Part shown: positions 3,464-60,500 of the stretch, one piece after another
Layout of the letters: each line of letters opens with the position of its first letter
Position numbering within the stretch: the stretch's first letter is position 1
Virus record (IMG/VR): IMGVR_UViG_3300009499_000096
Length of the DNA: 64,000 nucleotides
Source: an uncultured virus (IMG/VR IMGVR_UViG_3300009499_000096)
Taxonomy: Duplodnaviria; Heunggongvirae; Uroviricota; Caudoviricetes
Direction: 5' to 3' (one strand)
Translations under genes and position numbers: made by a program
Notes under the pieces: model-generated
Told to the model about the DNA's origin: nothing
What the model saw: the letters and a program-made list of their open reading frames with translations, nothing else
Database searches by the model: none

Positions 3464-3465
3464 CT

Positions 3466-16419: not shown

Positions 16420-18371
16420 TTTATCGTAAATAGGAGTGGAAGAGTGAGTGTCCAAAAACAAGGATAAGAAAGCAATCCTTGAAGCAAAGAAAATGGCAAC
16501 AGATGTGCGAACCATCATTGCTATTGAACTGGCTAACTTACCAAGGCTCAATCAGATGCAACTAGAACTTTTAGAAGTTATAGACAAGACGGATCCAGTG
16601 GTTCATGCAATCCTGAAAACCTATGGAGTGAGGGCTCTGGAATGTTAGGAGCTAACATAGTAGCTACAATGCTCAATTATTTTGGAGTGAGTGTTGCGTG
16701 TGGACTTGGTGGTTTGTGCATCATTGCTACCCTAGTGAGATTGTATGGAAGATTAAGAGAAATGAGGAGAACTGTCTATTATGGCTAAGGCTCAGAAGAA
16801 CGTGAAAGTTAGTGCTTGGGCTTTCACAATCAATGATGATCAAGGCAAATTCCACAGCATCATCCGAATACGCACAATGAAACCTGAAGGCAAAAAGATG
16901 AAAGACTATCACAGGAGACCATACTAAAATGCAGAAAACTTACCATGTTCACCTGAACCCAAAAGCCAAAGAGGACTATCACTTTGGATCATACTATCAC
17001 GTTCAGAGGATGCACATAGACAAAGCAGAGAAATCAGAATATGGAACTATGGATTATGGAACCAACTCAAGAGTGAAACTGTTTTTACATCTGCTTAAGC
17101 TGAGGCTCCAAGGCTACAGAAAAGACCAGAGGAAATGGTGAAAATGCCAAAGGATATTGTGTGCAATTTTTGTGATGGAGTGCTTGGAGATGTGGAGAAG
17201 CAGCCTCATGACAATCCAAACTTTGCTGAATATCGAACTTGCCTAAAATGTGGTTATCAATGGGCTAAGGAGTATTGGGCTTGGCTTGCTAGAGTTCAAA
17301 ATGTCAAAGTAATGGGAGCTGTTCAGAAATGAGGAAGAAAGTGAGGGTTATCTGTAGATCAGATGATTACAAGGCTCATGTGATCTTCAATAATAATTTT
17401 CCTAATGCTCAATGGTTTAGAATCCCAAAAGGAGACAACATCAGAATCTTTGCAAGCAAAGTGTATTTTGATAGTGTTCCTGAGAGAATCAAAGAGATTC
17501 AGACTGGTAAAACTATAGTGATTGGCTACACACCTGAGATTACAATAATGGGCTTGATACCTGATGCAGACTTTGAACTCTTGAAAGAAAAGCTTTCTGA
17601 AGCCCTTAAAGAGTTTGTAACAATCACTGAAATGGAGCTGAAGGCATGAGTTACATGAAAGCTACTAATCCCGACTTCACACCTGAGCAAGCTGAAGTTG
17701 CTAGGGAAGTTTGTAAGGTGGAAAGCCATGAGTTTGGAGTTCATAAAAAGAAGGTCATGTGCTTGAGATGTGGCTTGATCTATCCTAAACCTGAAATGAG
17801 TGATTTTGTGGAAGTCACTGGAAAGTTCAGAGGCAAGAATATTGCTGGAGTCAATTATTTTGGTTATGCGAAAGCATTAGAGGATTACAATTCTGAGCTT
17901 GAGAGGTTGTTGCTGAAATGAGTGAACATTGTGTTCTCTCTCCTGAGTCTAAGTGCCTTGGTGGAAGAGACTGTGAAACGTGCATCGTCAATGAACCATT
18001 ATTTACTCCCAATGAACGTCACATACTCTCTCTGAGGAGAGAGGAGAGAGATGTTATGTATGAATTTACAGAATCCAAAACCATAGAGATCCTGAACAGC
18101 AAAAAAGAGGCTGACATCTTCTTTAGAGTAATTGTGCAACCTATGGAGCAGAATAGGAGACGACAACAGAAACGGAAGGAAGGGAGTGCTCCAGCAAAAT
18201 GAGTTGTAAAAACTGTGGTTCAGCAATTATAATTGAGCAAATGCGTTCAATCCAAGCAGAGATTAACGAATTACGTAATAAGCTTCACTCATTACTTCAA
18301 CGACAAGAAGCCATGGCAAATGGTTTTTGTGATTCATATTGTCAAAGTAATTTTAAAGGAGTAAATAAGAA

Positions 18372-19496
18372 ATGAGTCAAGTGTTAGCGAATGGTGAGAA
18401 CGGTTCCACTGTGCTTGTTGGCAAGCTACATGATCCTGATACTTTGGTTTCAGGAGAAGAGTTGAAAGGCTGGAACTACAGGGCTATGTGGAGCTTCCTG
18501 AGACTTCAATATAAACGAAATGAGATTGACGCTGAGATCTCTGTTGCCATGGATAAGAAAAGGGTAGAGCTAGGCATCAGTGTGGAGAAACCAAGGGGAA
18601 TTTTGCCCAGATACTACAGCCAGCAAGTGCTACGTAGAATTTTCATGAAGTATGGGAGCCCTGAAAAACCCAGAGAACTTCAATTCATCATGGGAAGAAC
18701 TGGAGTCATTAGAGCTGTAGCTACTCTTCAACATCTCTTACTGGAACCACAAAAAGTGTATGACGCTGCTAAAACCTTGATGGATAAAAATTATCCTCAT
18801 CTACAGCCTTTAAACGACTTTAACCTGTCTGGAATCTGCTATCAACTCAATGACTTGAACGACATGAAAATAGGACTCCAAATTCATGCTGGAACCATCA
18901 CAACAAGGCAAGCAGTTAGAGTAGCAATTTTAACCAGAGTCGAACAATGCCTCAATGCACTCAGTTGGCTGAACATTGGAAGCCTCAATCAATTCATGGG
19001 ATTTGGAGCTGGAGTTGGAGCCCTAGAGTATGAAAGAGTTTTGAGAATCAAGAAGGTCTCAGAGCTGATACCTAGACTTCAATCAGCCATCATATCCACC
19101 TTGGGCAAAGAAGGAGACGTGATCGCTAAGGTTGAAGCTGGCAAACAGGTGAAGGTTACTCCCCGAACAGCTAGAGTTCTGTTGTCGGCTATGGGCTTAA
19201 GCTACAGCCTAGGAGCTAAAACAATCATGCAAGTGCTAGACCAGTTCAAAGAGGAAGATCACACGCAATGGGGAATGTCTATGGCTGCTAGTTGGGTAGC
19301 CAAGCATGGTAGCTTCAAGAAGAGACCTGAGCAACAGAATAGGCTTGCCACTCAGAAACTCAGCACGATGGCTGCTGCATCCTTGATGATTAAGAATATT
19401 CCGAAAGCTAGAAAGTTCAGTCTGGCTTGGCTGAAACAGCACGTTAAAGGTGGCTGTGTCACGACAGTAGAGGAACTTCTTAAGGGCTTAGTGTAG
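18372..19496 (+). CDS. DUF932-like mobile-element protein
   Basis: IRAVAT...IGLQIHAG..AVRVAILTRVEQCLN pattern reminiscent of the DUF932 R..C.N motif. Confidence 0.4.
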   Translation: MSQVLANGENGSTVLVGKLHDPDTLVSGEELKGWNYRAMWSFLRLQYKRNEIDAEISVAMDKKRVELGISVEKPRGILPRYYSQQVLRRIFMKYGSPEKPRELQFIMGRTGVIRAVATLQHLLLEPQKVYDAAKTLMDKNYPHLQPLNDFNLSGICYQLNDLNDMKIGLQIHAGTITTRQAVRVAILTRVEQCLNALSWLNIGSLNQFMGFGAGVGALEYERVLRIKKVSELIPRLQSAIISTLGKEGDVIAKVEAGKQVKVTPRTARVLLSAMGLSYSLGAKTIMQVLDQFKEEDHTQWGMSMAASWVAKHGSFKKRPEQQNRLATQKLSTMAAASLMIKNIPKARKFSLAWLKQHVKGGCVTTVEELLKGLV

Positions 19497-21857
19497 GTGG
19501 TGAGACTTTGAGATTTGAAGAAGCTCAATACTACTTCATCAAAGTGCTGGATGCTGAAGAACGTCTTGTGGACTTGTGGAAAACACCACAAGCCATAGAC
19601 TTTGAGGATCGGAAGTAACTATGGGAACAAAAGAAGCCTTGGCTGAGATCAATCGGTTAGCTGCTGATATGGGAGTTGGAGTTTCAAGGCAAAGACATAA
19701 AATACTACTCTATCAAATCCCAGCAAACTGGATTGGCATTAAATATCAATTCGGCTACACACCTTGGAAAACCACGATAAAGGGGAAATCTGGTTTCTTC
19801 TTCCTCAAATACCATCTGAAACCTAATGGTTCACTGGCTCTGGTGAAGTCTGTCAGATGGAGACAAAGGAAAATTGCAAGTAAGAAAGCTTGGGAAGCAC
19901 ACCAGAAACACTACACTGATCCTGAACGATTGAAGCTCCAGCAAAAACGTCTCAATCTCAAAAAGGAGAAGCAAACTACAATAGATCTCATTCCCCTTCC
20001 TCTGAGAAGAGCAACATCAAGGCTAACTGAAGTGAGAAAAATCATTCAAACACATGAGGCTGGACTCAAGAAATCTGAAAAAGCTGTTAAACGCAAGAAG
20101 AAGCTCATACGCAAGTGGACTAAGAAAGAGCAGTATTACAAATTGAAGGTTCAGAAGCTGGGAAACGATCCTATGGGGAGACTTCAATGAGGCTACGTAG
20201 CATTTTGTCATACATCGTGGACTTGGTGAACGATGTGGTGTCGGCTACTTCAATGATGCTTGAGGAATCCCTTGATGAAGTGGAGTGGATGCTAGAATGA
20301 TAGTTGGCATGGAAGTAGATTGTTACGTATGTGCTGAACGCTTGACAAAATGGCTGCAAGAACACAAGGAAGAAATCAACAAGGTTCTTGCTACTGATCT
20401 GAAAGAAAGAGCAATTCCAGAAGAGCATGAAATTACGAAAATTGGAACTGTTACAACCACTGTTGAACTGGAGAAATCAACATGACAAAAATTCAGACGG
20501 TTCTATCTCTCTACAACAAAGAAATGCTAGGAGACCTCTGAAATGAAACTGCTGCAAAAGCTGAAGAAAATATGGAATACTCCAACTAATGAATTTAGAT
20601 TACGCAAGCCAAAGGAACCCTTCACTTTGAGCCTACCAAGTAGCAGACCAGAAAAAGACACCATAGGACTCTTCAACAAAGCCATAATCATCAGAATAGA
20701 AAGAGAGCTCACTCCAGAGTTCAACTACAACTACCATGATTCAGATGGGCAGATACTTGCTGACAAAATCAAAGTAGTCACTACCAAGGGAACTTTTCAA
20801 ATTAAGAGCTGCAATGAATGTGATGTGCTCTACTTCAGAGAAGGAGCTTAAAAAAATGGCTCTAAATGAAGGACATATTTGCATCATCAAACACAGCATT
20901 AAATATTACAAAAAGATGGCAAAGGCATTTCCCGATGAAGAGATATGGAAAATAGCGATTAAAGATTGTGAACGATTGTTAGCAGAAGAAGAGGCTTAAA
21001 AAAATGACTGATTTACTTGAGATATTTGTCACAAAACGTAGAAACATAGCTTATCATTGTTGGGTTGAACGATGGTTAGAAACTGAAATGTCCTCTGCAA
21101 GATTTGTTGAAGCTATGAAAGAAAATATTGAAAGATCCAAGGCAAGAGGGGAGATGAGAAAACGATGAAAGTAATTCCTAAAAGCAGTAGCACAGTGAGG
21201 ATCCTGATGGATAGTGGAGATGAACTGTATGTTAGTGATGGCTCTGATCCAAGAGTCAATCCCGATACATACATTACTATTCGACTAAACGCAAAAGATT
21301 CCCATAGTCCAGTTTCTAAGTTGCCTTTTAAAATAACGGTTCAAGACGCTGACTATAAGATTCATGTGCTAACGGTTCGGGAGATCCAAATCCGAAAAGA
21401 AGCAAGGAAAAACGATGATGAACTAGAGGGTTTAGGAGCTTTATTTAAATAGGTGTTTGGGGAAGTTTTAGTTTGCTGAATAGAGAAGAGGAGATAGTCT
21501 AATGCCCTTATGTCCTGACTGTTACGCTGAGGGTAGGCTAGAGGTCATGATTAATTTTCATGATGAAACAGTTAAAGGTAAACTATACGCTATTTTGGAG
21601 TGCATCTCTTGTGGTTCTTCTATTAGATTGCCAAAAAGGATACAAGCTGATGGTAAGGAGACGACACCATAAATGAAGGCATTTACTCCTACAGCCACAA
21701 CACTGACAAGAGAGAAACTAAAGAGTTTAGAAGGTAAATCTGCTGTAATATTTGTCAAGAATCGAAAGGGAGCTTTTGTTCTATCTATCGAAATACCGAT
21801 GAGCAAGGATAATGCTGTTTCTCTTTGCACAGGGCTAACAAAGGAGACGACAATAGA

Positions 21858-22199: not shown

Positions 22200-23077
22200 T
22201 GGGAAATCAAAGGAAATCCATTTTGACCAAAACAATGCGATGCTATCTTGATAAACGTAGAAAGTGTTTCCATCCTAGTCTAGCAAAGTTTTGTGAGAAT
22301 CAACTCAAAATATGTAATGAGATGAAACCTTTTTGTGAAGAATGGCATGAAATATTGGAATCTGAAACATTACTTAAAAAACATCCAGAATTACGTAATA
22401 AGCTACAAACTTTAGAGGAAATACAACAGGAGACAAGCTGAAATGGCTGATAAAATCGTAGTTTTTGAGATTACATATGATCCTAAAAAAATCGAATCTA
22501 CCACTCTTGAACATCAAATTAGAAGTATTCATGGTGTCATAAGTGTGAACTGGGGAAGAAAAACTGATGGAAATTAAATCATCTTATTGGCGTAGCAGAG
22601 GGCTCCATATCACGTTCAGGGGAATGAAGTATGAGTTCAAGGAGATTCTGAAACTGCTTGAGGGCAAGTTTGAGGTCAGAGAATTTACTAAAGAACAGAT
22701 GGATAGAGCCAAAGTGATTGTGGATGTGAACAAGGTTCCATTGCATCTGCATTTTGAGATTCCTAACTTACCTGATTGTGTCCTTGGAACTGATGGAACC
22801 AGTGAATGTAAGCATGATGAAAATGGTGGTTGCTCTAAAAAAGATGCTAGAAGCTATCCACCTGACTGTGATAGTTATAAACAGAACTCATGGAAGAACC
22901 CAGTATGAATCCTTTCGATACTAAACCTCTCAATATGTGTCCTAAATGCAACAACAAGGAGCTCAAGCAATCTGCTATTATCACTTCTTTTGTTTGCAAG
23001 CATTGTGGAGCACGTTATACTCTGGTGAAGGATGGAGACTCTGAGAAAGACAAAAAAGAAGCTATGGTGATTGCAGC

Positions 23078-24001
23078 TTGAAATACTCCATACTCATCCC
23101 ATTAGTGAATAAGATTCTCCAGCAGTATCCAACAATGAGGCTAACCTTGAGGCAAATCTACTATCGGCTGGTAGCTGAATATAATCTCCCGAACAAGAGA
23201 AGCAGTTATAATCAATTGAGTAGCCAACTGGTTACTGCAAGGGAGAAAGGAGAGGTTGATGAGAGAAGGATTGAGGATAGAACCAGAAGTTTGCTAGGTG
23301 GTTACACTTTCTCAGCTTTGACTTCAGAAGGAGTGAATCAATATCGTTCATTAGCTGGATGGAAGGACAACAGCACTTTTGCTGAAGAAGCTAAGGACTT
23401 CTTTCTCAGCTTTTGGGATACCTATGAGTTGGATATGTGGCAAGACCAGCCACAGTTTGTTGTCGTCTGGATAGAGAAAGATGCCTTGAGCAGAGTTGTG
23501 GCTGAAGCAGCTAACCCATGCAAAGTGCTCACAGCTCCAAGCAGAGGTTATGCCAGCTTCTCCTATATGAGACAAGCAGCTAGACGACTTCCCAAAGGCA
23601 AGCCTACTATAATTCTACACTTTGCTGACCATGATGCTAGTGGCTTGGACATGACCAGAGACATTCAAGAAAGGTTCAGGAAATATGGATCTGGTAGAAC
23701 CATCACAGTGGAGAGAATTGCCTTGACTTATGAGCAAGTGCAAGAGCATAATTTGATTCCAAACCCTACCAAAAACACTGACACCAGAGCAAAGGAATAC
23801 ATTGCCCAGTATGGAAATGAGTGTTGGGAGCTAGATGCTATAGAGCCAACAGAGCTGCAAAGGATGGTGAAAGAAGCCATAGACAACCATACAGACCTAG
23901 AACAGTGGAAGGAATCTGAGCAGCAAGAAGCAGAGGACAAGCAACAGCTTCAAGAGACCTTTGAAAAATGGGCTGATGTCATAGAGGATGTGGATGAGTA
24001 A
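23078..24001 (+). CDS. TOPRIM-domain protein (Topo VI-A/Spo11/JetD-like)
   Basis: LTLRQIYYRLV, VWIEKDAL, SRGY, FADHDASG (DxD), ERIALT, WELDA. Confidence 0.8.
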   Translation: MKYSILIPLVNKILQQYPTMRLTLRQIYYRLVAEYNLPNKRSSYNQLSSQLVTAREKGEVDERRIEDRTRSLLGGYTFSALTSEGVNQYRSLAGWKDNSTFAEEAKDFFLSFWDTYELDMWQDQPQFVVVWIEKDALSRVVAEAANPCKVLTAPSRGYASFSYMRQAARRLPKGKPTIILHFADHDASGLDMTRDIQERFRKYGSGRTITVERIALTYEQVQEHNLIPNPTKNTDTRAKEYIAQYGNECWELDAIEPTELQRMVKEAIDNHTDLEQWKESEQQEAEDKQQLQETFEKWADVIEDVDE

Positions 24002-27000
24002 TGGGGAATGTGCGTTCAGGAAAAATGATGCTTCGTAGTCCTACTGGTTCAATATATTGGACTCAAAAAAACCAAGTTCTTTGTAAGCAGCAAAAGTTTT
24101 GTCATTGACTTGCCAGACTGGTGGCATGATACTCTTGGCTTCAAAACTGTTAGTGCAAGGACTTTAGATGAAGTGGATGTTGCCTTTCATGAAGCCATGA
24201 TGGAGTATGAGGAGAGACAGACAAGCAAACGAAAAGTTATTTTATTCACTTTCAAAGCTTCAGCAGCCATCTGGTCATATAATAATGATGGCTCTATCAA
24301 AAAAGCTTTGTTCAGAGAAAAGGAAGTTACGTTTAGTGATGGAACAGCATTGGATTTCTGGTGGCTTGTCGGATATGAGCTTACCAGTAAAGTAAGAGAA
24401 AAGAAAACTTATACTAATTTAAATGGAGACTCCATCATGAATCCTGACAAGGTTATGGAGTGGAGTGAAAAACGTGAGCTATTCTTCCTTGCTCTTCAAC
24501 AGCGTCTTGAAACTCTAATCGTGCAAGCTCATACTTTCTTCAACTTAGAAATGGAGCAGATCACCAAAATGATTGAAACTCATGAAAACTTAGAGTCATT
24601 ACCCTATCTTACCAATGAGATTAAGGAGCCAACTACTTGAGCAATTTCTGTAGGTGTAAGGGGAAGAAGGTGTTAGGAGCCGACAATAAATGTGTGAAAT
24701 GTGGAAAACCAATCGGGAGAAAAGGCATGGCTAATGCTGGTGTCATAGAGGTTCCATGAATGAGTGAAGCTAAAAAGAAGAAAGAACCAAGTCCAGATGA
24801 GCTGCTGCTTGAGGGAAAAGACTTTCTCAGTGAAGATAACATCATCGGTTTTGTTTCAATTAAACAACTGGGTAATGCCCAGCAAGTCAGAGTAGATACA
24901 AAACGCTTTGCTAAGATTGCCAAGTTCCTAGGAAGCTTATCTGATATGGGCTTTCCAGTGGTTATTATCACTGTGCAAAACAAGAAACCTGTGGTTTTTG
25001 GTGGAAAAATCACTGGGATTGCTATAGCTCCAATGTTTACGGATGATGAAAAATGACTTCTAATTTAGACGACATATCTGATTTTCTGGAAGAAGAGTTG
25101 GCTGATTGGTTCATAGCGAACATTACTCATAGAGATGTTAAAGAAGATATGAGAAGAGTGAGTGTTAAAAAATGAAAACATCTCCAATATTTCTCAAAAA
25201 ATCCAATACAACTATACAATTTGTAGAAATTGGTAATGAATGTTATTTACTATGGGAAAATCATAACACTAATAAAATTAGTGTTGTTAAACAAGAACCT
25301 CTTAACTTAGATTTATTGAGATTGGACAGATTGAGGAGAACTTAAAAAATGACTGGGAAAATGAGTGAGTTTCAGGAATGGGAGAAGGAATCTAGGAGAA
25401 ATACTTTGATTCTTTCAACAGGGTTCTCTATATGTTTGCTGATTCTGGCTCTGGTTTTGAGGCTGATCTAATGAGCTACGTTCAACTGAGTTTCCCTGAC
25501 ATTAAGAACTTCATCAAGTATGTCTCAGAGAAAGTGATTACTAGAGTCGGGAAAGTGGTGATCAGTGGCATGGAGCAAGGGGAGAAGGAAGGGGAAGCTA
25601 CTTTGCATCTCTATTATCGGCTCACAGCTAAGGATGTGGTGAACACTGAAATTATCATCTGTGACTTCCTGTTCTATAAGAATACTTACCTTGGTGGAGA
25701 AGCTGAAGAGCAGAAAACTATTGATGAAGCCACCACGAAATTTGACGCTTGGTTGAAGAATGAACTTAGCCAATTTCTGAAGGCTGGTGGAGAACTCATA
25801 GATGGAGAGTTCAAAACCATGGGAGCTGAATAAGATGAGTAGCTGGCAAAAGAAGCTTCACAGCATAAGGTTCCCGAAACCTGTTCCATGCCCTTATTGC
25901 CCATTAGGAACCGAACCCTACAAGACAAGTCTAACTCTTATTCGTCACGTTTTGAATAATCATAACTGGAACAAGCAGTTCCTTGAAGGCTTTGAAATAG
26001 TGAAGGATACTGAGGAAATCATGGTTCTAAAGGAGAACAGAAAAAATGAGTAGAAGAGAGAACGTGAAGGTAAAGGAAGGGCATAAGCATGGAGAGTTTT
26101 GGAGAGAGGAGCATGGCTGCTGCCATAATCCTATTGCTGGTTGCTTCTGTTGTCGCTGTAAAGGCATTTTGTGTTCATGTCCATGCCACAAGAGGGCTGA
26201 GAAATGATGAGTAGAGAATACAAGTTGGCTATAGCCATAATCTTAACAGTAGTTTTTGGCTTCTATGGTTTTAATGTTGCTTTAGGTGGAATTATGGCTG
26301 GGTTTATGATTCATCAGCTTCTTCCATATAGTCTTGGAGCTTTGTTACCATTCGTTATTTGTCTAGTTATATCCTTAGATCAATATGGCAAGCTGAAAAA
26401 GGAGAAAACAAAAAATGAGTGAATTAGAAACTAGACTAGCCAAATATCAAATCAAACAGATTTCTACACCAAAAACTGTGAAGGAAGAAAAACTGTTCAA
26501 GAGATTAGGGTTTGATGCCAAAATAAAACAGTTAAATGATCAAAGAAAACTCTTTGAAAGAAGCAAACGATGGTTACTGTTGAAGAATCCAAGCTGGGAT
26601 GATATAGAGCTCCAGAAAAACTATCGTTATTACAGAGTGTCTGGGATTCCACTGGAGAAAAATAAGTTTAATGACTGGAGTAAGCCTTTAGTCAGACTCT
26701 GGGGATTCATTGTTCCTGTGATCTGGTTTTCAGTCTGGTTTGTTCTACCAGCCTTGATTTCTGCTGAGACATTTTTCATGGTTCTAGGTGTGGCTATTAT
26801 AGCCACATTCTTCTGTGCTATGGGCTGGGGATTGATTCTTGCTTGTATTCTGGAAACCTCTGTAAATTACAAGTGTCTGGTGAATACTCCTGTGGAGAGC
26901 TACAAGGGAGAAGTGCCTAAAGCTATTCTTCAAAGAGCAGTAGAGCAGCAAAAGGAGTTTGAAGGCTTCCGAATCTGGAGCATACTGAGACACAGTGAAA

Positions 27001-28407
27001 TTGCTGAGTTCGATCAAGGAACCTTGATGGCACTAGATCCTATTCTTGTTGGAACCTTCAAAGATGCTAATTACGTGGCTTTCATTGGATTATGGGGAGA
27101 CGACTTAGAGGAAATCAACACAGTGTTAGAGAGAGGAACCAAGCCTTGACCACTATTCAAACACCTACAAGCAAAATACCATTCCCTTATGCACAAACAG
27201 CAGATGCAATGGAATCATGGATACGAAAATTTGAAAGAGAACTGCAACAAATTCTCACAGGAGATTTTTCTCCCTGTAACGCTTGCACTCCTGAAACACA
27301 TGGAGATTGTAGGATCTGCATCAAGGACTTGTTGAAGGAGAAGTAATCAATGAAGATGTATAGAGAAAAGGTTGCAGCTCTTAAAAAAAGAGTTGAAGAA
27401 AACAGACAGGGAAAAATTATTTCAACAGAAATACACGGACAGGGAAAACAATGTCCTCACTGTTGTAGCATGAACCTTGAACATAACAACAAATATCCAA
27501 GATTCAGAAAAAAGACTTTCTTCAAAAAAACTGTTGTAATCTTCATGACTAAATGCCTAACTTGTGGCACTCTCTTTGACAAACCTGAAATATTGAAGGA
27601 TCCTTGGGTAATTTTTAGACTTGTAAAAGGTTATGAGGCTTATAATTTGAAGGAGACGACAACATAAAATGAGAATTTGGAGCTTTACTGAATGGATAGT
27701 TGAATGTATCTTAATATGGCACTTCTTTATTTTTGTATCAATAGTTGCATATCCTTACTCTGTTTGGCTAGGAACAATCTTTCTTTCAACTTCATTCATT
27801 TTAGGAACTATAACTTACTATTTTAAACTCCAAGAGAATCAAAAGCTAATGAAAGCATGGGATGATCTCACAAAATGAAGCATCAAACAATCTCTAAAGA
27901 TATTCAAGCCAAGGATATTGGATTTGAAGATGTGAAGAAAAATCTGCTGGAAGCTACAGGTCAATTTGAGAGCAAAGTAAAAATCCAGAGAATCAAGCTC
28001 AAAGTTACTTTCTACTGGAAGGAGAGGAAATAGAGAATGGGTAGATTTACTCCTCTGATTGTTGGTTTTCTTATTGGGCTCTGTATTGTGCTTTCTGTGT
28101 ATATCATACTTCAGAACTATGCTTCTTCAGAGAATATTATTGTGGTTAATGGAACCATCACAAGATTCTACTTAGGAGACGAAATATTCTCTATTGGTTA
28201 TCATCATTACTTTTTTCATGGGATCCAATGGGAAGGTATTAATGATAACCGACTGGTGATTAGTCATTTCTGGAAAGCAACCAATGAAGGTGGTTCATCA
28301 AATATGTATGTGCAACTCTATAAAGAAAGCACTTTTAGAATTAACTCTCAATCTTTTCTAGTGAATGATTTTGCTGATAGCTGGATTGACTTGGAGAAGG
28401 TCTTAGA

Positions 28408-29127
28408 ATGACTAGAAGAAGCAATATGTATAGCCTCAGTGTGAAGCAATGGAGACCTTTTGTTGGCTGTGAACATGATTGCGTTTATTGCAAGCCTAGT
28501 TTTCAAGCTCAAACTAAACGCTGGGCTGGAGCCATAGATAAGGAAACTGGGAAGAGACGCTGTGAAGCTTGCTACCAGTTTAAGCCTCATCTGCATCCTG
28601 AACGATTGGATCAGCCTCTCCCGAAAACCAGATTCATGCAGTTCATCTTCACCTGTAGTAGTGGAGATGTAGCTTTTTGCCCAACATATAATCTGAAAGC
28701 AATCATGGATCGTATCAGGAAGGAACCTGACAAAACCTTTCTCATCCAAAGCAAGAACCCTGACACGTTCAACAGAGTAAAGATTCCAAGGAATGTGGTG
28801 TTGGGAACCACCATTGAAACGAACAGGTCTATTACTGCAAAGTATTCTGAGGCTCCTTTAACGATTAGACGATACCAAGACTTCTTGGAAGTTAAGCATC
28901 CTTACAAGATGGTTACGATTGAGCCAGTAATGGAGTTTGACCATGATATGCTGGTGTCATGGATTCTGGCAATTGATCCTTTGATGGTGTGGCTGGGCTA
29001 CGATTCTAAGAACTGTAAGCTTCCTGAACCACCATTAGCACAGGTGAAACAGCTCTTCTTTACTCTGGCTGATCTGGGTTATGTTGTCGTCTTGAAAACA
29101 ATCAGGAGAGCATGGCATGAGCAATGA
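28408..29127 (+). CDS. DUF5131 (phage Gp37/Gp68-like) radical-SAM-type protein
   Basis: WRPFVGCEHDCVYC, FLIQSKNP, NVVLGTTIE, VTIEP. Confidence 0.8.
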   Translation: MTRRSNMYSLSVKQWRPFVGCEHDCVYCKPSFQAQTKRWAGAIDKETGKRRCEACYQFKPHLHPERLDQPLPKTRFMQFIFTCSSGDVAFCPTYNLKAIMDRIRKEPDKTFLIQSKNPDTFNRVKIPRNVVLGTTIETNRSITAKYSEAPLTIRRYQDFLEVKHPYKMVTIEPVMEFDHDMLVSWILAIDPLMVWLGYDSKNCKLPEPPLAQVKQLFFTLADLGYVVVLKTIRRAWHEQ

Positions 29128-44238: not shown

Positions 44239-44778
44239 ATGATTTATCGAACTATTCTGATGGATCCACCTTGGATGGAGAAAGGAGCTGGAAAATGTAA
44301 GAGGGGAGCTGATAAACACTACCAGCTAATGACTTCAGAGGAGATTATTGAAGCAATTGTGAATTGTCCAATGTTTACTCCTTCTGTGACTGGTTGCCAT
44401 CTTTACTTGTGGACTACTAACAATTTTCTTAAGGATGCTTTGAAGGTGATGGAGAAGATTGGATTCAGATACATCACTAATATTGTCTGGGTTAAGGATC
44501 GCTTTGGACTTGGGCAATACTTTAGACAGCAACATGAGCTCTGCTTGTTTGGTGTCAAGGGTAAGCTCATGACTAGAACTAAGAAAGTTTCTAGTGTCGT
44601 CTGTGAGAGAAAAAGGAAGCACTCTGAGAAGCCTAGACGAATGTATGAGCTCATCGAAAAACAAAGCCATCCACCTAGATTGGAGATGTTTTCTAGGACT
44701 AGAAGGGAAGGCTGGGATGTTTGGGGAGCTGAGGTTCCCAGTATGGAGCAAAGAGTTTTAGGAGTTGAACCTGATTGA
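44239..44778 (+). CDS. MT-A70-family adenine methyltransferase
   Basis: ILMDPPW, HLYLWTTN, GFRY..VWVK, GLGQYFR..HE.CLFG, HSEKP, LEMFSR..REGW..WG. Confidence 0.9.
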   Translation: MIYRTILMDPPWMEKGAGKCKRGADKHYQLMTSEEIIEAIVNCPMFTPSVTGCHLYLWTTNNFLKDALKVMEKIGFRYITNIVWVKDRFGLGQYFRQQHELCLFGVKGKLMTRTKKVSSVVCERKRKHSEKPRRMYELIEKQSHPPRLEMFSRTRREGWDVWGAEVPSMEQRVLGVEPD

Positions 44779-46000: not shown

Positions 46001-46659
46001 ACGTCTCCATTATTATCCCAGCATTTAATGAAGAGGAAAGATTACCCAAACTGCTCTTTTGGCTTTGTCCTGTTGCTGAAGTGTCTGGCTATGAGGTTCT
46101 TGTAGCTTGTGATGGTAGCACAGATCATACAAGAGAGATTGCTAAAGCATGGAGAACTAAGCCTATTGGATCCACTGAACGACTGGGGAAAGGTGGTGGA
46201 ATTATTAAAGCTGCTAAAGAAGCTCAGGGAGAAACAATTATGACTATGGATGTGGATTTCCCTCATCCTCTGCTCATAAGCTACTACTATGGATACTTCA
46301 TAGGCTGTGGAGCTGATTTTCTCATCGGAAAAAGAAGTGCTAATGAATCTTTTACTAGACGTTTAGCTTCTTGGCTATTCAAAGAATATACTGAAGCCTT
46401 GTTCGGTTCTCTTCCCGATACCCAGAGTGGTTTTAAGATTATTAATCGTGAGCTCTTTCTCAAAGTTGCTGATGATATTACTATCAAAGGTTATGCTTGG
46501 GATGTGGAACTGTGTTTGAGGCTGAAGGAGCTGGGTTTGAAAATAGAGGAGATGCCTTTTGATTCCAAGTCTGGAAGTAAGGTTCATGTTCTTGAGGATG
46601 GAATCAAGATGGGTTCCAATTTGTTGAAGTTATGGTATAGGAGACGACACCAAAAATGA
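45997..46659 (+). CDS. GT2 polyprenol-phosphate glycosyltransferase (DPM1/GtrB-like)
   Basis: SIIIPAFNEE, DGSTD, GKGGG, MDVD, DTQSGFK, WDVEL. Confidence 0.9.
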   Translation: MNVSIIIPAFNEEERLPKLLFWLCPVAEVSGYEVLVACDGSTDHTREIAKAWRTKPIGSTERLGKGGGIIKAAKEAQGETIMTMDVDFPHPLLISYYYGYFIGCGADFLIGKRSANESFTRRLASWLFKEYTEALFGSLPDTQSGFKIINRELFLKVADDITIKGYAWDVELCLRLKELGLKIEEMPFDSKSGSKVHVLEDGIKMGSNLLKLWYRRRHQK

Positions 46660-49305: not shown

Positions 49306-50060
49306 AAAATGAATGGTGGAGTAATTTCATTCGGATTGTTTTTCTTTGGCATCTTTAGCTTTGGCTTTTGTTGTGGTGTTATTGTGGCTCTTTTATTTAG
49401 AGCTTTGGGAGTAATATGAACGTAGAAGTGTTTAAAAAATGACTATTCTTAATCATCAGCAAGCTAAGGACTGGATGAAGAAATGGAAAGAGGATCATCC
49501 TGAAGAGGCTGAGAAGTTTGATCGTGAAGTAGAGGTTATGATGAAGGATCCTGAGCTGCTGAAGAAATGGCTGGAGAAGAAAGGTTTTCATTTTCCTGAA
49601 GAGGTTGCTTGCCAGTATTCTAATAAGTTGGTGGAGAATGAAGAAAAGCTGTTCAAGGCTGGGAGACGCTGTGTGATTACCCAGAGAATGTGTTGGAACT
49701 GGAGTAAACCAGAAGCTGTGTTAGATTGTCAGGTGAGGAAGGAGCTTGGAGCAAAACAAGAATCAGAGTGAAAGGTCACTATCGAACTGTGACAAGGGAT
49801 TCCAGAGGGAGATTTGTTAAAGTTGAAAAATGGAGCAGCAAGCAACCAGAAGAATAATGTTAATGATAATGTTAAGAGTAATCTTGAGAATAACATTGAT
49901 GATAAGAGTAAGCCTAACATTTTTCAAGTATGCAAAGAGCTGAAAATCAGTCCAATGGAGCTTTTAGACTTCCCATTACCATGGGCTTCAGACTCTATGA
50001 AGATAACACTTATTTTGACATGGAGAGCTATTGAAGAAGCAAGGAGACGACACCATAAAG

Positions 50061-50552: not shown

Positions 50553-50916
50553 AGGAACTGGTTTATGTTGTCGTCTTAAGTGCCATAGGAATCTTTCTAT
50601 TCTACCACAGCCAAGACCTTGGGGAATCACTGACTGTTTGGAACCCTTTTAAAACAATCCAGTATATTGCAGAGAAATGGTTTGGGCTTCTACTCATCTC
50701 ATCTGCTTTCGGATATTCCTACAGTAAAGTGCCCTGTAACCCTAAGCCATTGGATCAACAGGACTGGGCTATTCTCATCTTTATCTTGTTGATGGCTCCT
50801 TTGTTTGAAGTGTTGGCTGTGGATATTTGGCTCTATGTTCTCATCATCGTGCTTCCATCAGTTTGTGTTGTCGGCTATCGCAAAAGTTAAACATTTATCA
50901 ACTAGATTAGGGGAGC

Positions 50917-51699
50917 ATGATTAGCTTGGTGATGCCCTGTCATGATGAGGAGCATCTTCTTCCATACGTTTTACCTTCAATTCAAGCTAGTCCAATAGAT
51001 GAATTAGTTGTCGTCTTAGATAGATGCACAGACCACTCAGAGCAGATTCTTGATAGATGCAGTTTTCCCTTTAAAGTCAGGAAGGTGGTGAAGAAGAATC
51101 AGAGCTGGAGTTGTCCAACTGCTGAAGTGTTTGAGTTAGGCTTCCAAGAGGCAAGGGGAGACTTGTTGTTCACTACTGCTGCTGATATGGTTTTGGATCC
51201 ACACCAGTTCAAAGCCAGCTTCTTTAACGATGCTGATTTCATGAGCTTCTTCTACTACAACATGGATGTTGGCTCCTACAGTGGCTTCCGACATATTCGA
51301 CAATGGTATGAGAATTTTCTTACAAGGTTCCAAGTGTCACGTTTTCTGAAGGGAGCCTTGGGAAAGCAAACTGGTCACATGGCTTTAACTAAGGAGTGCT
51401 GGGAGAAGCTTCATGTGAAGGATACTCCAAGTGAATTTGATGATTTCAAAGAACGTGCTTTAGATGCTGGGTTCAAATACAGATGGCATGGTGAGACTAG
51501 GAACTTTCACTTGAGAGCTGGGCTTTCAAGGAATAGGCAACTTTTACAGGGCATCAGTCGATCTCAGAGAAAAGTGAATCCATTGATGGTTCTTGGTCAC
51601 AGTGTCTTACATTTCAAACCTTCTGTTTTCCTTGGTTACTTGCAAGAAAAGAAACATCATGTTTTCAGTCAGAGGCAATGGTCTAAAGAAAAAAACTAA
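50917..51699 (+). CDS. GT2 family glycosyltransferase
   Basis: ISLVMPCHDEE, VVVLDRCTD, AADMVL. Confidence 0.8.
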   Translation: MISLVMPCHDEEHLLPYVLPSIQASPIDELVVVLDRCTDHSEQILDRCSFPFKVRKVVKKNQSWSCPTAEVFELGFQEARGDLLFTTAADMVLDPHQFKASFFNDADFMSFFYYNMDVGSYSGFRHIRQWYENFLTRFQVSRFLKGALGKQTGHMALTKECWEKLHVKDTPSEFDDFKERALDAGFKYRWHGETRNFHLRAGLSRNRQLLQGISRSQRKVNPLMVLGHSVLHFKPSVFLGYLQEKKHHVFSQRQWSKEKN

Positions 51700-52394: not shown

Positions 52395-52607
52395 TGGGAG
52401 AGTAGGTGAAGGTATCGGGAGTTCTAGTGAGTGTCCATACCCATTCAGAACATGACACCATCACCTGTCTCCAAGTCCATATATGCGATGAACATAGTAT
52501 ATTAAATTAACACATTAGCTGAAGTGTTAATGTTGATGGACATGAACAAGACGACAACACAAAGATAAGGTTAATTTGTCAGCACTACCTATAGACTCAA
52601 TAATACG

Positions 52608-53552: not shown

Positions 53553-53671
53553 TGGTTCATACGGTTTGATTTCACAGTAATCCTTCATGAAAACATCACT
53601 TTCTACCAGATTTACCCTACCCTAACCTGTAACTTTTTCAAGTTTTTCCTATAAGGCTCTGCTCTGACCAA

Positions 53672-54485: not shown

Positions 54486-54523
54486 GTAACCAAGACCACA
54501 CTTTAGTAAATTCCATGGAAAGT

Positions 54524-54558: not shown

Positions 54559-54579
54559 AGTTATTTTGGTTGAATTGGT

Positions 54580-57500
54580 ATGGGCAAAACAACTCATTAT
54601 GGGAAACCAAAAACATATCCATTCTTCTTTAGAGCTGAGAGAGGCAAAGGAGACACATTCATCAGTGGAACCTTCAAGACAAAGAAAGCTTGTAGGGCTG
54701 CTTCTAAAACCTATCCAAGTGCAAAATCCAACTCAAACTATCGAATCAGAATCATAGATAGGAGAAAATAACCATGGGTAAGCAACCAAAACCAAGAAGC
54801 AAAAAATCATGGACTTTTGTGCATACAAACCAAGAAACCAGAGAGACCTACCGTTTTAGGAAGATGGCTAATGGAACTATCAAGACAGAGAAATTTCTAG
54901 GCTGGAGAACTCCAAAGGGGAAAATCATTCCACCAAGGGGAAAATGACCATGGGGAAAAAAACATCAATAGGTAAAAGAACAATCCATGCTCTTATCTAT
55001 GGAACAAACAAAACTAAGACATTCAAAAGTAAGGTCATTCGTGAACAAACTTTGGCAAAAGGGTATCCTGTCTACCACTTCACTACCCCTAGTGGTGAGC
55101 ATAGAAATACCTCAAGAAAGGGCATCTATGGTGGTGTAGTTCTTACCAAATCAGAAGCAAGAACGAAAAGAAAGAGGAGAAAATAACAATGGTTCAAAGA
55201 AGTTATAAACCAACAAAGGTGGATGGTAGAAAAGTAGTATTTGTTGTTCGTGATGGAAGAATATGGGCAAGAGTTCCTTCACTTTCAAAAAAGCAGTTCT
55301 TAGGAATGGGCTCTACCAAGACTGAAACGATTGCAGATGTCAGAAAAGCCATGAAACACATCAAAGTTACTGCAAAGGGAAAAAGAAGGAGACGATAGAA
55401 ATGGGTAAGTTTAGACCTTCTGGAGCAACTTTACATAAAACCAAAATTAGAGCCCAGAAAGAAGCTAAGGCTCTAAGGAAGATAGGCTGGAGAGCAGAAG
55501 TTCAGCCTTCCACTAAGACAACACAGAAAAGAAGTCCAACTCTAAAATGGGTTTGCCACATAGGGCAAAAAAAGAAAAGGTGATTTTCTTGAGTAAACAA
55601 TCTCCAGTTTATGATAAGAAACCATCTAGGAAACTTTTGGAGTCGGCTGCATCCACTCACAAAACATTGTTCCATGCTGTTGTGGAAGGCATGATTGAGA
55701 GGGAAGAGAAGAAGAGGAAGAAAAGGAGATTCTGGTAAAAATGCCTTGTAGAACTAAGAGAAAAAAGAAGAATCTACTCCAAAAACATCTCTCAGAGAAA
55801 GTAATGTTTGGTGGAATTTTGGTTACTAGAGGAAAAATGGTTGCTGAGTTGCAGAGGATAGCTAAGATACAATTTCCCAAGGATACACTTAGACAAACTA
55901 GGGTAGTTAATATTTACCTTGCTGGGAAAGGGAGACGATAATCATGGGCAAGAAAATGAAATTAAGTCCAATTCAGCGAAAAGTGCTCACTAAAATCAAG
56001 AAGAGACAAATCAAGAACATAGAGAGACCAATAAGGATTGGTGGAAAACAAGCTCTCTCTCCCAAAGGCAAACCATTGAAGGCATCATTCCTGAATATCC
56101 CTAACAAGGAAGCTACTACATTCAGAACCTTGGAGAAGAAAGGGTTGATCTCAGCCTTTGGAAAAACTGAATACTACACAAATTTCAGACTCACTCAGAA
56201 AGGGAAAGCACAATTCAACATGAGGAAATAACCTTGCCTAAAAAACTCACTATATTTGAAAAACATCAATTGGCGATAGCTAAGAGGACATTGAAGATGC
56301 CTAATGTAATGGCTGCTGTGATGGGTGGCATGACTAAGGCTGAAGCCAAGCGTATTGTTAATAGGCTTGGTTCTAAAAGGAGAGGAAAATAACCATGGGT
56401 AAGAAAATGAAGTTTGTCTTGATCAGGAGAACCAAGATAGGACAAACGACTCAGCGATTTACCACTAAGAAGAGAGCCAGTGACATAGCTCTGAAGTGGA
56501 TTCGATACAGAGAAGGTATTGAAGGTGGAGTTCTCAGCATGACTTCCACAGCTCAGGTGTTGCCTATCGGGGAGTTTAACCGACAGCAAAAAGCTCTCCT
56601 TGAGAGAGATAGACGCATTGATGAGAGTAGAAGGCTGAGAATGAAGGCTGCAAGAACTGGCAAAGTGCAAGTTGGCAAAGGACTTGGTAATCTCCTCAAA
56701 GAGAAGAAGATGGCTTGTGGTTGCCCATCAGGAAAACACAAACCTTGGTGTCCATTCCACAAACCAAGCAAAGCTGAAAGAGAGAGAGTTCGTAAAGCAG
56801 AACAACATTGGGAAAGGAGTTTGGGAATACGATGAAGAAAAAGAGAGCTCCTAGAAAGAAGTGGCTTTCTCCCTCTATGAACCCAAGAAAACTGTTTGAT
56901 GTAGAACTCTTGGATACTAGACCATCACCAAGTAGAACAATCTTGAAAGTTACCAGAAGTGGAACACATCAGATGCAAGCAGTTAGAAAAGCTGCTAAAA
57001 TTCTTCCACCTTCTATCAACTTACAGGAATGGAGAGATCCAAGGGAGAAGAAGTATTCAAGATATGTCTTTTTGACAGGAGAATTGAAGTAAGATGCCAA
57101 GGGCTGTTAGTAGAAAAACGAAAAAACCTCTTCTAGCTAAACGGAAGTCTCATGCACATGATTTGCTGCTTGAAATGAAAGAAGCTAATGAAAGAAGTGT
57201 CAAAAAAGGTGTTGCTACGAAACTCTCATACAGAGTAGTTAAGCTCCAAAAAGGTTATGGAATTTACTACAAGAAAACTGGAAGATGGAGATAATCAAAA
57301 TGAAATTGAAAAACCACAAGAGGGCTCAGAAACTTGTTGGAACAACCATTGAGTTTGTTCCATGGTATCAGACGTTCAGAAAAGACACTACAATGACTGG
57401 AAAATTAATGAGAATCAGAGGAGCTATGGGTAGTAAAAGAGGGAGACCAGCAAAATCAGCAGACAAGATGATGGTCATTAAACCTACTGGGAAAACTAAG

Positions 57501-60500
57501 AAATGGCTCAAGGATATTGGGCTCATGAAACCAAAGCAGAAAACTATTGTTCGGCTTCTTACTGGGCATAAAGTCAGAAGCCAAACCAAACTGAAGAGGG
57601 GAAAATAACCATGAAGGGAAATCATAAGAAAATAGCCAGTGAACGTGAAACTATCCGAAAAGGTATAAGCCAACTGCTCAAGGAGATTGGGATGTCTAGT
57701 GCCAGCAAAACAGTGTTACAGGTCAAGAAACCAGAGGATTTGAGCACGTTCATCCGAACTGCTCAGGGAAGATTCAAGCAGATGGGAGCTGGAGCTCCAC
57801 CTAAGATTCAGAAATCTGTATCAACTGCTGTTCAGATGCTGGCTCAGTTGGAGAAGAAATACAAAAAACCCTTGAAGTATGAGCTTACAAAAATCTGGTG
57901 ATTGACATGGCTAAGAAGAAAGACAAGAAGAAAGAGAAGAAGAAGAAAAAGGACAAGGGGAAAGATAAGAAGAAATCCTTGGTCTCAGTAGAAAAAACTA
58001 CTGATTCTGGAAAATTGAAAAAGAGCAAGAAGAAAGGAAAGAAAAAAGGCAAGAAAAAAGGCAAGAAGAAATCTGGGCTCTCAGTAGCTGAAGCTATTGG
58101 TTTGGGAGAATTTAAACTGAAACCTCCAAGTGAAGTATTGTTTGAAGAGGTATGACAGATGGCTAAGAAGAAACTGAGTGAAATGAGTTACAGTGAGATA
58201 CTTCAGAGAAACATAGATCGTCATAATCGGAAGAGAGCTAAAAGCTTGGCTATGTTCCAAGCTGAACAGAAGAGGCAAGGAAAGAAAGCTAATGAGCCCA
58301 TAGACTTGATGAAAATGGTAATGGGTAGGTGATTGTGAATGGGAACACGTATTAGAAAGCATGGAGAAAAATCTTGGGAAGTTTATGGAACTGGATTTCC
58401 AGTGTTTATAGCACAATCAAAGAAAAAAGCTGATTCTGTCGCTAAAAGACGAAGGACAATTCTCAAAAATCGTAGAAAGAAGAGGAGACGATAGAAGATG
58501 AGTGCTGAACAGATTGGTGGAGTTGCTATGATGGGGATGGCTTTAGCTTCTCAAGCATTTGTGGTGGATATGGCAAGTAGTCTCATCACAGGGCAAACTA
58601 GGCTTACAACATTCAGCAGAAGGAGACCTAAAAGCAAGATTGCCAGAACTAAAGCTGGAAAACCATACTTCAGAATCATAGCTTATGAGAGTAGCCGACA
58701 TGGATTAATAATTCCTAAAAGAAGAATTGCAAGGCTCCCAAAAACAGCTATCTCAGCTATGGGAACCTTCTTTGATCCCGACACACATCATACAATCGTG
58801 GAAAGGGCTGCTAGACTTCAAAAGGGTAAGAAGAGAAAGAGCCAAATCAAATCAGCCAGAGTTACCCTACCAGCAAGCACAGTTAGTAAAATGATATTTG
58901 GATAGGATGAAAAATGACAAGATACTACACAATCAGAGACAGATACACTAGCAAGGACTTGGTTCTCACCAAAGCTGAGGCTATGAGAGCTCATGAGAGA
59001 GCTAAAGCAATGAAGAAGAAAGTGGTTAAGAACTTGGAGAAAATAACATTCTCTAAAGTGAAGGGAGTCAGTGAAAGGTCTCTGTTTGAGCTGCAAGGAG
59101 TGTTACGTTATCAAAAAGGACTCAAGAAGGGGAGAAGCTGACCATGGGCTACGTGCTATATGTTCATAACAAGTTTGGCTCAGGTAAACGCAAAGGAAAA
59201 CCGAAAGGATATGGACAATGGCATCCATCAAAAGCCTCTGCTGAACGACATAGAAAGAATCAGAGAGATACCTACAAAGATAATCCCAAGGATTTGATGG
59301 GAACCAGAATCGTGAAAGTTAAAGCTAATCATTCAAGGTTATCCTCAAAACAAATCAGAAAAAAATCTTTGGAAAGTGAATGAAAATGGGTAAGAAACTT
59401 AAAGCTTTGAAACGTAAAATCAAAACTCTCAAGAAAGACGTGGAGAAGGACTATCGGAAAACGAAAAAGGAGCTCCAGAAGCAGAAGAAGAAGGCTGAGA
59501 AGAGATATGCTGGTGTCGGGAAGAAAGTTGCAAAGGTTCAGAAAACTGCTCAAGCATGGTCTCTTAAGGTTCCTACTACTGCTGAACTTATTGGATTGGA
59601 TGAACTCACGAAAAAGAAGAAGAGGAGACGACACTAGAAATGTCTAAGAAATATGGCTACTTAGTAAGAGGAAAGAAGGTGAAACAGGGAAAATTCTGCA
59701 AGACTTTAGGTGAGGCTGGTAGAGAATTAGTTAGACAGTTACGTGCTGGTGTGGAAAATGTTAAGGTTTCACCAATTAAAAATAAGAAAATGGCTGACCA
59801 GTATTCAAAGAAAATCATTAGAAAGAGGAAGGGGAAATAACCATGGTTAGAACTTTGAAGGAAACAAAATCAAGTTATGAAAGACCAAAAGGCTGGGGAA
59901 TGTTCCATACACATTACGGAAAGAAAACTCTTGCTGAACGTCATGCTAAAAGACTTGAGAGAACTGACCTCTTGACCACAGCTATAGTTAAAACTCCTAA
60001 AGGCTGGAATGTTCTTCATAAATCCAATAAGAGAAGTCTGGAATTGGTCAGAAAACAAGTCGCAAAGAGGGGATAAATCATGCCAAAGAGACATTCAGGT
60101 TTTCTTTCAGTAGGTGTAGAGATAGATAAGAGTATCAAAAATCTTAGAAAGACTCTCAGGAAAGAAGGCATCCCTATTGTAGCCATTAAAAGAGCATCGC
60201 CACATCCACTTTTTGACTTGGATTTACCAAAGGGTTCTCATAGATACCTTGTCTCTGTTCCAGCAGCATATCTATATGGTCAAAGAGCTGAGTCTCTATC
60301 TGGTCTGAGGAAAAAAAAAGGGGAAATAATCATGCCTAAGAAAAGAAAGAAGAAAGTAGAGGAAGAGGAAAAACAATCAAGAGTTAGCCGATTACTAGGC
60401 TTGCCTCTGAAAGCCATGATGAAGCTTGGAGACTGGGAGAGAAAACAGATTGACAAAATCAAAGCTAACAGGATACAAGATGATGCTTTGAAAGCTGAGT

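Follow-up and report, generated by a model that had tools for sequence, protein, structure and literature searches.

A start-associated motif in a virus-like element of a probably archaeal host: a Shine-Dalgarno core joined to a separable 13-nt element found on both strands

Introduction

The start-associated sequences (SAS) of cluster K mycobacteriophages are asymmetric 13 bp repeats that contain AGGAG, occur in 11–19 copies and lie 3–7 bp before gene starts (Pope et al., 2011, PMC3203893). They precede unrelated, non-structural genes that mostly begin with ATG, and some of their conserved positions cannot pair with 16S rRNA (PMC3203893). Reverse copies are single per genome and intragenic matches few (PMC3203893, PMC12699233), and SAS function was untested as of 2025 (PMC12699233). 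A motif of similar placement was found in a 64,000-nt stretch of DNA from an uncultured virus (IMG/VR record IMGVR_UViG_3300009499_000096, Caudoviricetes; hereafter the window). It is an 11-mer, AGGAGACGACA, first flagged as a recurring gene-junction motif by a reading made without database searches (the sequence-only reading), and it joins a Shine-Dalgarno (SD) core to a separate 13-nt element that also occurs without the SD, on both strands.

The motif resembles SAS in being a short asymmetric repeat placed a few bases before a mostly-ATG start, with 13 exact copies and nine variants in the window. It likewise contains AGGAG, leads unrelated genes and sometimes overlaps the upstream stop codon. 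Both motifs are confined to a non-structural part of the genome rich in ORFan genes. The conserved positions behind GGAG would probably, as in SAS, fall outside 16S rRNA pairing, to judge from the canonical SDs of motif-less genes. The sequences, however, are unrelated (the SAS consensus is GGGATAGGAGCCC), and the host is probably archaeal rather than a Mycobacterium. The inverted-repeat partner of SAS, ESAS, was not seen in the window, and unlike in SAS the non-SD part recurs here without SD or ATG, on both strands and inside genes. On this comparison the motif can be regarded as an analogue of SAS in behaviour and not as a member of SAS. The start-associated kind of motif was already known; what is new is that its conserved part stands alone, on both strands.

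Two further phage systems are close to this locus. The stoperators of cluster A phages (L5 gp71-type) are asymmetric, repressor-bound 13-mers located in promoters and short intergenic spaces, where they follow the direction of transcription (PMC9283540). Both systems comprise more than 20 asymmetric sites of about 13 nt that are mostly co-oriented with transcription, the window having 28, mostly at gene junctions and one in an intergenic region beside a recombinase gene. Repressor binding was shown for stoperators, whereas here we infer it; fusion to an SD and a constant distance to ATG are found only here, where about a third of the copies are reversed. The PeSL cassettes of T4-type phages combine a promoter with a terminator stem-loop (Arbiol et al., 2010, PMC2839356), and share with this locus regulatory sequences between small non-essential ORFans and whole-gene insertions, deletions and replacements between close relatives. 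They differ in that the motif has no stem-loop and no promoter consensus, and breakpoints are not concentrated at it. In the archaeal-virus literature, the matches listed held promoter-type repeats (intergenic in HF2, or linked to anti-CRISPR regulation) and no start-associated motif.

The 11-mer at gene starts

All 13 exact copies of AGGAGACGACA reported by the sequence-only reading were found, each on the plus strand, against 0.00 expected from 100 dinucleotide shuffles. Twelve precede an ATG that opens an ORF (open reading frame) of at least 60 codons, and the reported distance of 5–8 nt between 11-mer and start codon was recovered for these twelve, corresponding to a GGAG-to-ATG spacing of 11 nt (five copies), 12 nt (five), 13 nt (one) or 14 nt (one). 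These copies lie at 21656..21666 (ATG at 21673; the upstream gene ends K-E-T-T-P-stop within the motif), 21842..21852 (ATG 21858), 27651..27661 (ATG 27669), 31324..31334 (ATG 31340), 31515..31525 (ATG 31531), 32064..32074 (ATG 32081), 33750..33760 (ATG 33766), 33989..33999 (ATG 34005), 44028..44038 (ATG 44045, in a 94-nt intergenic gap), 46639..46649 (ATG 46656), 50042..50052 (ATG 50061, the copy with spacing 14) and 59623..59633 (ATG 59640). The thirteenth, at 18155..18165, falls within ORF 17918-18202, and no ATG follows it. An ACG (18172-18174) occupies the ATG position at a spacing of 12 nt, in frame with gene 18199-18375 and with no intervening stop, and would be a former or non-canonical start.

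Nine start-linked variants were scored, also on the plus strand: AGGAGACCATA at 16913..16923 (ATG 16929), GGAGACAAG at 22428..22438 (ATG 22443), TGGAGACAACA at 31112..31122 (ATG 31125; previously given as 31113), AGGAGACAACA at 34267..34277 (ATG 34280) and 40465..40475 (ATG 40483), AGGAGACATCA at 37525..37535 (ATG 37538), AGGAGACGATA at 55387..55397 (ATG 55401) and 58483..58493 (ATG 58498), and GGGAGACGATA at 55930..55940 (ATG 55944). Eight of these had been listed before and proved real, and the copy at 55930 is added here. All 21 start-linked sites use ATG. Start linkage on the plus strand fell with mismatches to the 11-mer, from 12/13 at none to 4/7 at one and 9/23 at two, against a background of 15%, and a graded series runs from exact copies to GGAGAC-only sites. 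The minus strand held 0, 0 and 7 matches at zero, one and two mismatches.

As the sequence-only reading had it, the motif is read in different frames by the upstream genes, in frame 1 (K/x-E-T-T) at 10 sites and in frame 2 (R-R-R-H and similar) at seven. One R-R-R-H case is the glycosyltransferase upstream of 46639, whose homologues are just 36–37% identical, leaving its C-terminus uninformative on conservation of the motif. The reported 22-mer identity between 21655 and 44027 was confirmed, and a 25-mer is identical at 31318 and 31509, spanning the copies at 31324 and 31515. The flanking genes are not paralogous: an all-versus-all blastp of 160 ORFs returned just two unrelated pairs. Predicted RNA accessibility of the initiation region was 0.56 for motif-bearing genes and 0.50 for the others (p = 0.10). 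The DNA folding energy of 130-nt windows around the 13 copies did not differ from random windows on either strand (p = 0.65 and 0.85), with no hairpin, and no Rfam family matched the motif. Neither paralogy nor RNA or DNA structure accounts for the repeat. An archaeal B recognition element (BRE)/TATA promoter or a phage-type promoter for leaderless mRNA was ruled out by reasoning on geometry, because the motif stops 0–3 nt before the ATG and its tail varies (ACAAA, CCAGA, CTAGAA).

Exact 20-mer scans of viral contigs returned nothing, and those of genome and metagenome collections returned single chance matches (an RTX-like repeat and a coding site). A 14-mer scan of IMG/VR returned unrelated contigs only; the one with two matches carried a duplicated high-GC gene.

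The Shine-Dalgarno core and the gene junctions

In the regions before the 139 longest-ORF starts without GGAGAC, the counts were 23 for AGGAG (4.75 expected), seven for GAGGT (1.0 expected) and ten for GTGAT (2.5 expected). These belong to the canonical GGAGGTGAT family, which implies a canonical anti-SD, and GGAG is the ordinary SD of the genes in the window. The sequence-only reading had taken GGAG for an SD core and the bases behind it for a sequence outside the usual anti-SD complement; the use of AGGAG, GAGGT and GTGAT by motif-less genes agrees with both statements. The distance from GGAG to the start is mostly 8–12 nt in the window, where starts were picked with an SD bias, and the 11–14 nt of the motif lie at the long end of this range. 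As to pairing of GACGACA with some other conserved 16S segment, a 7-nt complement somewhere in a 1.5 kb rRNA is expected by chance.

Gaps of −4 to +5 nt separate the genes at 78 of the 142 co-directional junctions beyond 16.4 kb. The same holds for 13 of the 16 motif junctions that could be scored, in accordance with the earlier remark that the motif overlaps upstream gene ends; of the other three, one (21858) is a gene-call artefact. For overlapping gene pairs, work in Haloferax and E. coli has demonstrated termination-reinitiation, to which the SD contributes to a varying degree (Huber et al., 2019, PMC6728339). The junctions in the window resemble this SD-assisted process in their stop/start overlaps (ATGA, TAATG) or few-base gaps, with the SD in the upstream 3′ end. 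In that process, however, the SD suffices, and no invariant 13-nt sequence is predicted behind it.

The 13-nt element apart from the Shine-Dalgarno core

The motif consists of the SD core GGAG and a separate, asymmetric 13-nt element, AGACGACA-MHADA (AGACGACA-[A/C][A/C/T]A[A/G/T]A). The first two bases of the element are the end of the SD, and its A-rich tail is the SD-to-ATG spacer. In 12 of the 13 exact copies the ATG follows 0–3 nt past the element. The minimum spacing of 11 nt equals the length of the element behind GGAG, and therefore the element always stands whole in front of the ATG.

The element was also found on its own. Its 12-nt core GACGACAMHADA (GACGACA[A/C][A/C/T]A[A/G/T]A), which includes neither SD nor ATG, had 19 matches in the window against 0.02 expected: the 13 SD-linked copies, one more on the plus strand (9113) and five on the minus strand (3685, 23456, 29080, 44590 and 50564), all five inside plus-strand genes. 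GACGACA alone occurred 25 times (1.68 expected), 18 times on the plus and seven on the minus strand. The SD-linked copies are all co-oriented with transcription, and those without an SD are divided into five on the plus and seven on the minus strand. With the SD copies masked, AGACGAC (17 occurrences) ranked first and GACGACA (12) joint second among the 100 7-mers of the same composition with one CpG, for which the mean was 2.17. Five of the nine minus-strand AGACGAC sites share 6–8 further bases with a start-linked copy, 13–15 nt in total, against 0.3% under the null. At up to one mismatch to AGACGACAMHADA, 28 sites were found (18 plus, 10 minus) against 2.0 expected from a third-order Markov model. 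Matches to the 12-mer in gene interiors numbered four on the minus strand (0.029 expected) and three on the plus strand (0.16 expected), and neither count was reached in any of 1000 synonymous shuffles made within each gene, in which the protein and the per-gene codon usage were kept. Since this excess is present without SD or ATG and on both strands, ribosome pairing does not explain the conserved part of the motif. What is shown directly is how the motif is built, that the element can be separated from the SD and that it is in excess on both strands.

On the plus strand, an SD-less element lies at 9112..9124, inside gene 8940-9848, and another with one mismatch at 52549..52561, a possible operator position within the 213 intergenic nt that separate the recombinase gene from gene 52608. 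The minus-strand elements lie at 3685..3697 (inside plus-strand gene 3466-4293), 23456..23468 (inside the phrog_6247 gene, on the peptide F-V-V-V-W), 29080..29092 (inside the DUF5131 gene, on Y-V-V-V-L), 44590..44602 (inside the MT-A70 methyltransferase gene) and 50564..50576 (near the 5′ end of gene 50549-50890), with a one-mismatch copy at 51004..51016 inside gene 50917-51699. Measured along the transcription of the recombinase gene, the copies at 50576 and 51016 lie 0.7–1.1 kb downstream of it. In DUF5131 and MT-A70 the motif is made by codon choice.

A sister form, AGCCGACAACA, occurs on the plus strand at 24675 and 60755 and in three minus-strand copies, which read TGTTGTCGGCTAT on the plus strand. 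The plus-strand copy at 24675..24685 (AGGAGCCGACA) is followed by ATAA-ATG with no ORF of at least 40 codons behind it. Minus-strand copies (AGCCGACAACAGA) include 19178..19190, the reverse of the plus-strand repeat TGTTGTCGGCTAT, and 34515..34527. A 17-nt identity, CGACAACAAAACGTAAA, at 9109-9131 and 60752-60774, lies inside two unrelated genes and overlaps the SD-less element or the sister form.

Gene turnover among close relatives

Contigs of four runs (X2–X5), with relatives from a second study, were aligned on 21000-40999 and were syntenic with the window at about 95–99% identity. They differed from it by many whole-gene deletions, insertions and replacements, with at least 24 joints in 20 kb, and 21000-40999 is a hyperplastic ORFan region. 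The PAPS-reductase block at 37363-38591, for example, is exchanged for 177 nt, and a 388-nt insertion lies at 25833. Block 31317-31811, with the motif copy at 31324, is missing or replaced in X2–X4, and gene 27669-27878 is absent from X3 and X4, where its motif leads the following gene.

The breakpoint set comprised 28 breakpoints in 15 of the 24 joints. Of these, 22 fell within 25 nt of a candidate start codon, and such zones make up 21% of the sequence (p = 1e-10). The motif was not enriched among the junction breakpoints (4/22 versus its 14% share of junctions, p = 0.39), and no motif-to-motif joint was present among the joints listed. At 21837 and 31316 the breakpoint precedes the motif by 5–8 nt, and at 27665 it comes just after it; with breakpoints on either side, there is no fixed crossover. 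Microhomology was seen at generic start contexts, such as AAAAATGACT at 25048/25345 (10 nt) and AAATGA at 27665/27873. Genes thus turn over at start-codon contexts generally. Genes led by GGAGACGAC were missing or replaced in some relative in four of eight cases, against 10 of the 61 others in 21–41 kb (p = 0.048); the four stem from only three events, and this variability weakly favours a cassette idea.

The attC sites of integrons, which occur beside IntI with attI and Pc, fold as single strands and consist of imperfect inverted repeats some tens of bases long. The window shares with integrons a co-oriented array of single, mostly promoterless genes split by a recurring sequence. The motif, however, is 11–20 nt long and unstructured, and the recombinase lies inside the array; no integron integrase (IntI) or attC-like repeat was found in the window. 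The integron-like cassette junction proposed by the sequence-only reading is not supported, there being no extra folding around the copies. Its expectation that indel breakpoints in relatives would fall in the motif held only in proportion to the share of the motif among junctions, the breakpoints following gene starts generally.

Gene content, probable host and other junction types

The G+C content of the window was 39%, GC skew was positive throughout, and nearly all genes, the majority of them small ORFans, were carried by the plus strand. Recognizable genes of the virus or mobile-element type encoded a phrog_6247 ‘topoisomerase’ family protein, DUF5131, an MT-A70 methyltransferase, a PAPS-reductase-like protein, a DnaA-like replication initiator (by PHROG), a tyrosine recombinase and a DUF932-like protein. 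Ribbon-helix-helix (RHH; 45845-46000), C2H2 zinc-finger (40312-40479) and winged helix-turn-helix (wHTH; 6759-7244) proteins were also encoded. An XPB/Rad25-type helicase at 41464-42990 had unnamed relatives 64–74% identical, and its named relatives were all archaeal metagenome-assembled genomes (‘archaeon’, Heimdallarchaeaceae, Bathyarchaeia, Thermoproteota and others). A single-protein search of IMG/VR with the helicase gave no relative, whereas a profile search gave five viral contigs at 40–68% identity. These five shared with the window the helicase alone (plus DUF5131 in one), and contained neither the motif nor any other strongly repeated 10–12-mer. One named DUF5131 relative was a planctomycete. 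Sigma-70-like promoters and intrinsic terminators did not exceed shuffles in 40–60 kb. No tRNA genes and no relevant tandem repeats were found in the window, and a megablast of 20 kb against phage GenBank gave no match. Because of the kin of the helicase, the C2H2 and RHH proteins and the lack of a promoter or terminator excess, the window is probably a virus, or a provirus-like element, with an archaeal host.

The only clear minus-strand genes, a tyrosine recombinase gene and two small ORFs, are in 51696-54485, where they flank the DnaA-like (PHROG) gene; a palindrome-rich intergenic region of 213 nt occupies 52395-52607. The recombinase, of 232 aa (51696-52394), was the sole one seen and had weak, below-cut-off matches to Phage_integrase/XerA. 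This region is likely that of lysogeny and replication control.

The first 16.4 kb (1-16400) had a different character. It encodes larger enzymes, among them an 801-aa PKD-domain protein, two radical SAM proteins, GT2 and GT4 glycosyltransferases, several methyltransferases and an AsnB-like/FkbM fusion. SDs there are weak or absent, TTG and GTG starts are numerous and the start-linked motif is absent. The block may have had a separate origin, as a module for the modification of glycans or DNA.

Two other junction types recur. The second, (C)TTAAAAAATG(A), has 11 exact 10-mer copies between 25165 and 49441, including 25342, 29792, 36860, 47574 and 49302, and consists of an upstream TAA stop followed by A-rich bases and the next ATG, often with GGAG or GAGG a few bases upstream. 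It stands at both ends of a local duplication of about 100 nt (47490-47590 and 49218-49320), which encodes a hydrophobic mini-ORF of about 27 codons and directly precedes genes 47581 and 49309. The third, GGAGAAAATAACC-ATG, spans 54761-59845, with three copies of GAAAATAACC and four of AAATAACCATG; GAAAATAACCATG has three copies within 54.7–57.7 kb, and the shorter form AAATAACCATG has its fourth at 59.8 kb. This type is confined to the operon that begins past the recombinase/regulatory region, and junction types seem to go with modules.

Discussion

The sequence-only reading had offered two interpretations of the motif, a recombination junction and a binding site for a translational regulator. 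The motif is more than an SD, and a regulator site remains the best reading of it, while the recombination junction was not upheld. Our tentative preference is for an operator- or stoperator-like site of a trans-acting factor that reads duplex DNA, fused to the SD. The small genes follow one another on one strand, joined by stop/start junctions like those used in termination-reinitiation. A sequence-specific factor, most likely a protein of the virus-like element itself, would read the 13-nt site on duplex DNA. With the site embedded in the initiation regions of about one gene in five, its occupancy would gate the gene behind, giving operator- or stoperator-like control along long co-directional gene arrays. 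The element may be fused to the SD because gaps of 0–5 nt leave the SD-to-ATG spacer as the sole place that costs no coding capacity. A DNA reader is preferred because a reader of mRNA only would miss the minus-strand and SD-less copies; the SD-less copy in the 52395-52607 region lies where an operator would be expected. The existence of such a factor, its reading of DNA in place of mRNA and its effect on expression are inferences. A broader form of this proposal is doubtful: that AGACGACA-MHADA is a genome-wide 13-nt ‘address’ read on duplex DNA in either orientation by one virus factor, which gates a fifth of the genes, as an archaeal counterpart to silencing by stoperators or as a new translational-operator network, with copies actively created in coding sequence through codon choice, and that these copies bias where cassettes are lost and replaced.

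Several observations weigh against an operator-like site. Of 95 distinct contexts of the 14-mer AGGAGACGACACCA, 39 continue directly into ATG, compared with 20 of 86 for a single shuffled-spacer control (p = 0.012). These contexts are unrelated, mostly high-GC viral contigs of IMG/VR in which TG follows directly, giving ACC-ATG, and the sequence may be no more than a favourable initiation region. The constant register of the motif with GGAG and ATG fits a translational role at the RNA level at least as well. The minus-strand copies are few (five of the exact pattern, ten at up to one mismatch), and the five are all in one codon phase (xxT GTC GTC Txx, Val-Val), so protein coding restricts where the element can sit. 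At the minus-strand copy in DUF5131 the family consensus is G-F-V-V-[I/V]-L-K (119 homologues), and the MT-A70 stretch is variable but hydrophobic, with S-V-hydrophobic in the family consensus. In phrog_6247 the copy coincides with an E-to-V change at a column with E in 80 of 80 homologues; its reading as an override at the DNA level was dropped, since the protein differs at 36 of the 113 columns with at least 95% conservation. As reader, the RHH, C2H2 zinc-finger and wHTH proteins and the products of the minus-strand genes at 53672-54485 are no more than candidates. Finally, the comparison with relatives covers 95–99% identity only and gives no evidence of long-term conservation.

The same register counts in favour of a purely RNA-level start-associated sequence, a (re)initiation module of 19–20 nt read on mRNA by the ribosome or by an initiation or repressor protein, as proposed for cluster K SAS or T4 RegA-type operators, with the interior copies as by-products. 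Its position relative to GGAG and ATG is fixed in 12 of 13 exact copies, every start-linked site uses ATG, 13 of 16 scored junctions are tight, and the 14-mer often precedes ATG in unrelated viral contigs. SD motifs, moreover, aid archaeal termination-reinitiation (PMC6728339) and SAS provide a precedent (PMC3203893). Such a module would nevertheless leave unexplained the minus-strand copies, in excess over synonymous shuffles, and the SD-less copy at 52549; predicted accessibility did not differ, and the spacing of 11–14 nt is at the long end of the window's own range. It ranks second among the explanations and is rather unlikely. That the extension has no function beyond the SD, being an inherited junction sequence or a favoured A/C-rich spacer decaying to a generic SD, would suit the graded series down to GGAGAC, the existence of two other recurrent junction types (TTAAAAAATG, 11 copies; GAAAATAACCATG, three) and the commonness of the 14-mer as a ribosome-site context elsewhere. 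Thirteen error-free copies before unrelated genes, and a core in excess inside genes on both strands beyond codon-level expectation, make this quite improbable.

A portable junction adaptor or recombination substrate, comparable to PeSL, would let identical junctions act, by function or as a side effect, as short homologies for the gain, loss and exchange of genes, and the motif spread with cassettes. The clustering of breakpoints near starts, the microhomology at start contexts (10 nt at 25048/25345), the copy pairs identical over 22–25 nt, the variability of motif-led genes and the PeSL precedent (PMC2839356) all point this way. It is, however, an improbable account, as the breakpoints, known for 15 of the 24 joints, fell at the motif no more often than its share of junctions predicts, no listed joint ran from motif to motif, the crossover lay upstream twice and downstream once, and neither a promoter plus stem-loop nor an attC-like fold was found. 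Very unlikely is a role in RNA processing or pairing, in which an endoribonuclease would cut at the SD regions or complementary interior copies would sequester the start region. RegB is the model for such mRNA cleavage at SD regions. At five places the plus-strand mRNA does carry a perfect complement of the element, and four of these lie 0.3–1.5 kb downstream of a plus-strand copy (27651/29092, 44028/44602, 50042/50576 and 3355/3697, the copy at 3355 being an SD-less interior one). That proximity, however, is about what chance would give (roughly 1.8 of 9 by hand estimate), and no local structure was found.

Start-associated motifs have been known in phages since 2011 without a mechanism, and the present case comes from a probably archaeal virus-like element. 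Whole-gene turnover at start contexts generally tempers the popular view of every recurrent junction motif as a site of recombination. The separable conserved part, present on both strands above codon-level expectation, points towards a reader that recognizes this sequence, and away from pairing with rRNA. Were such a reader found, the element would be a compact, portable switch for many genes, and a first case of control of this kind in archaeal viruses.

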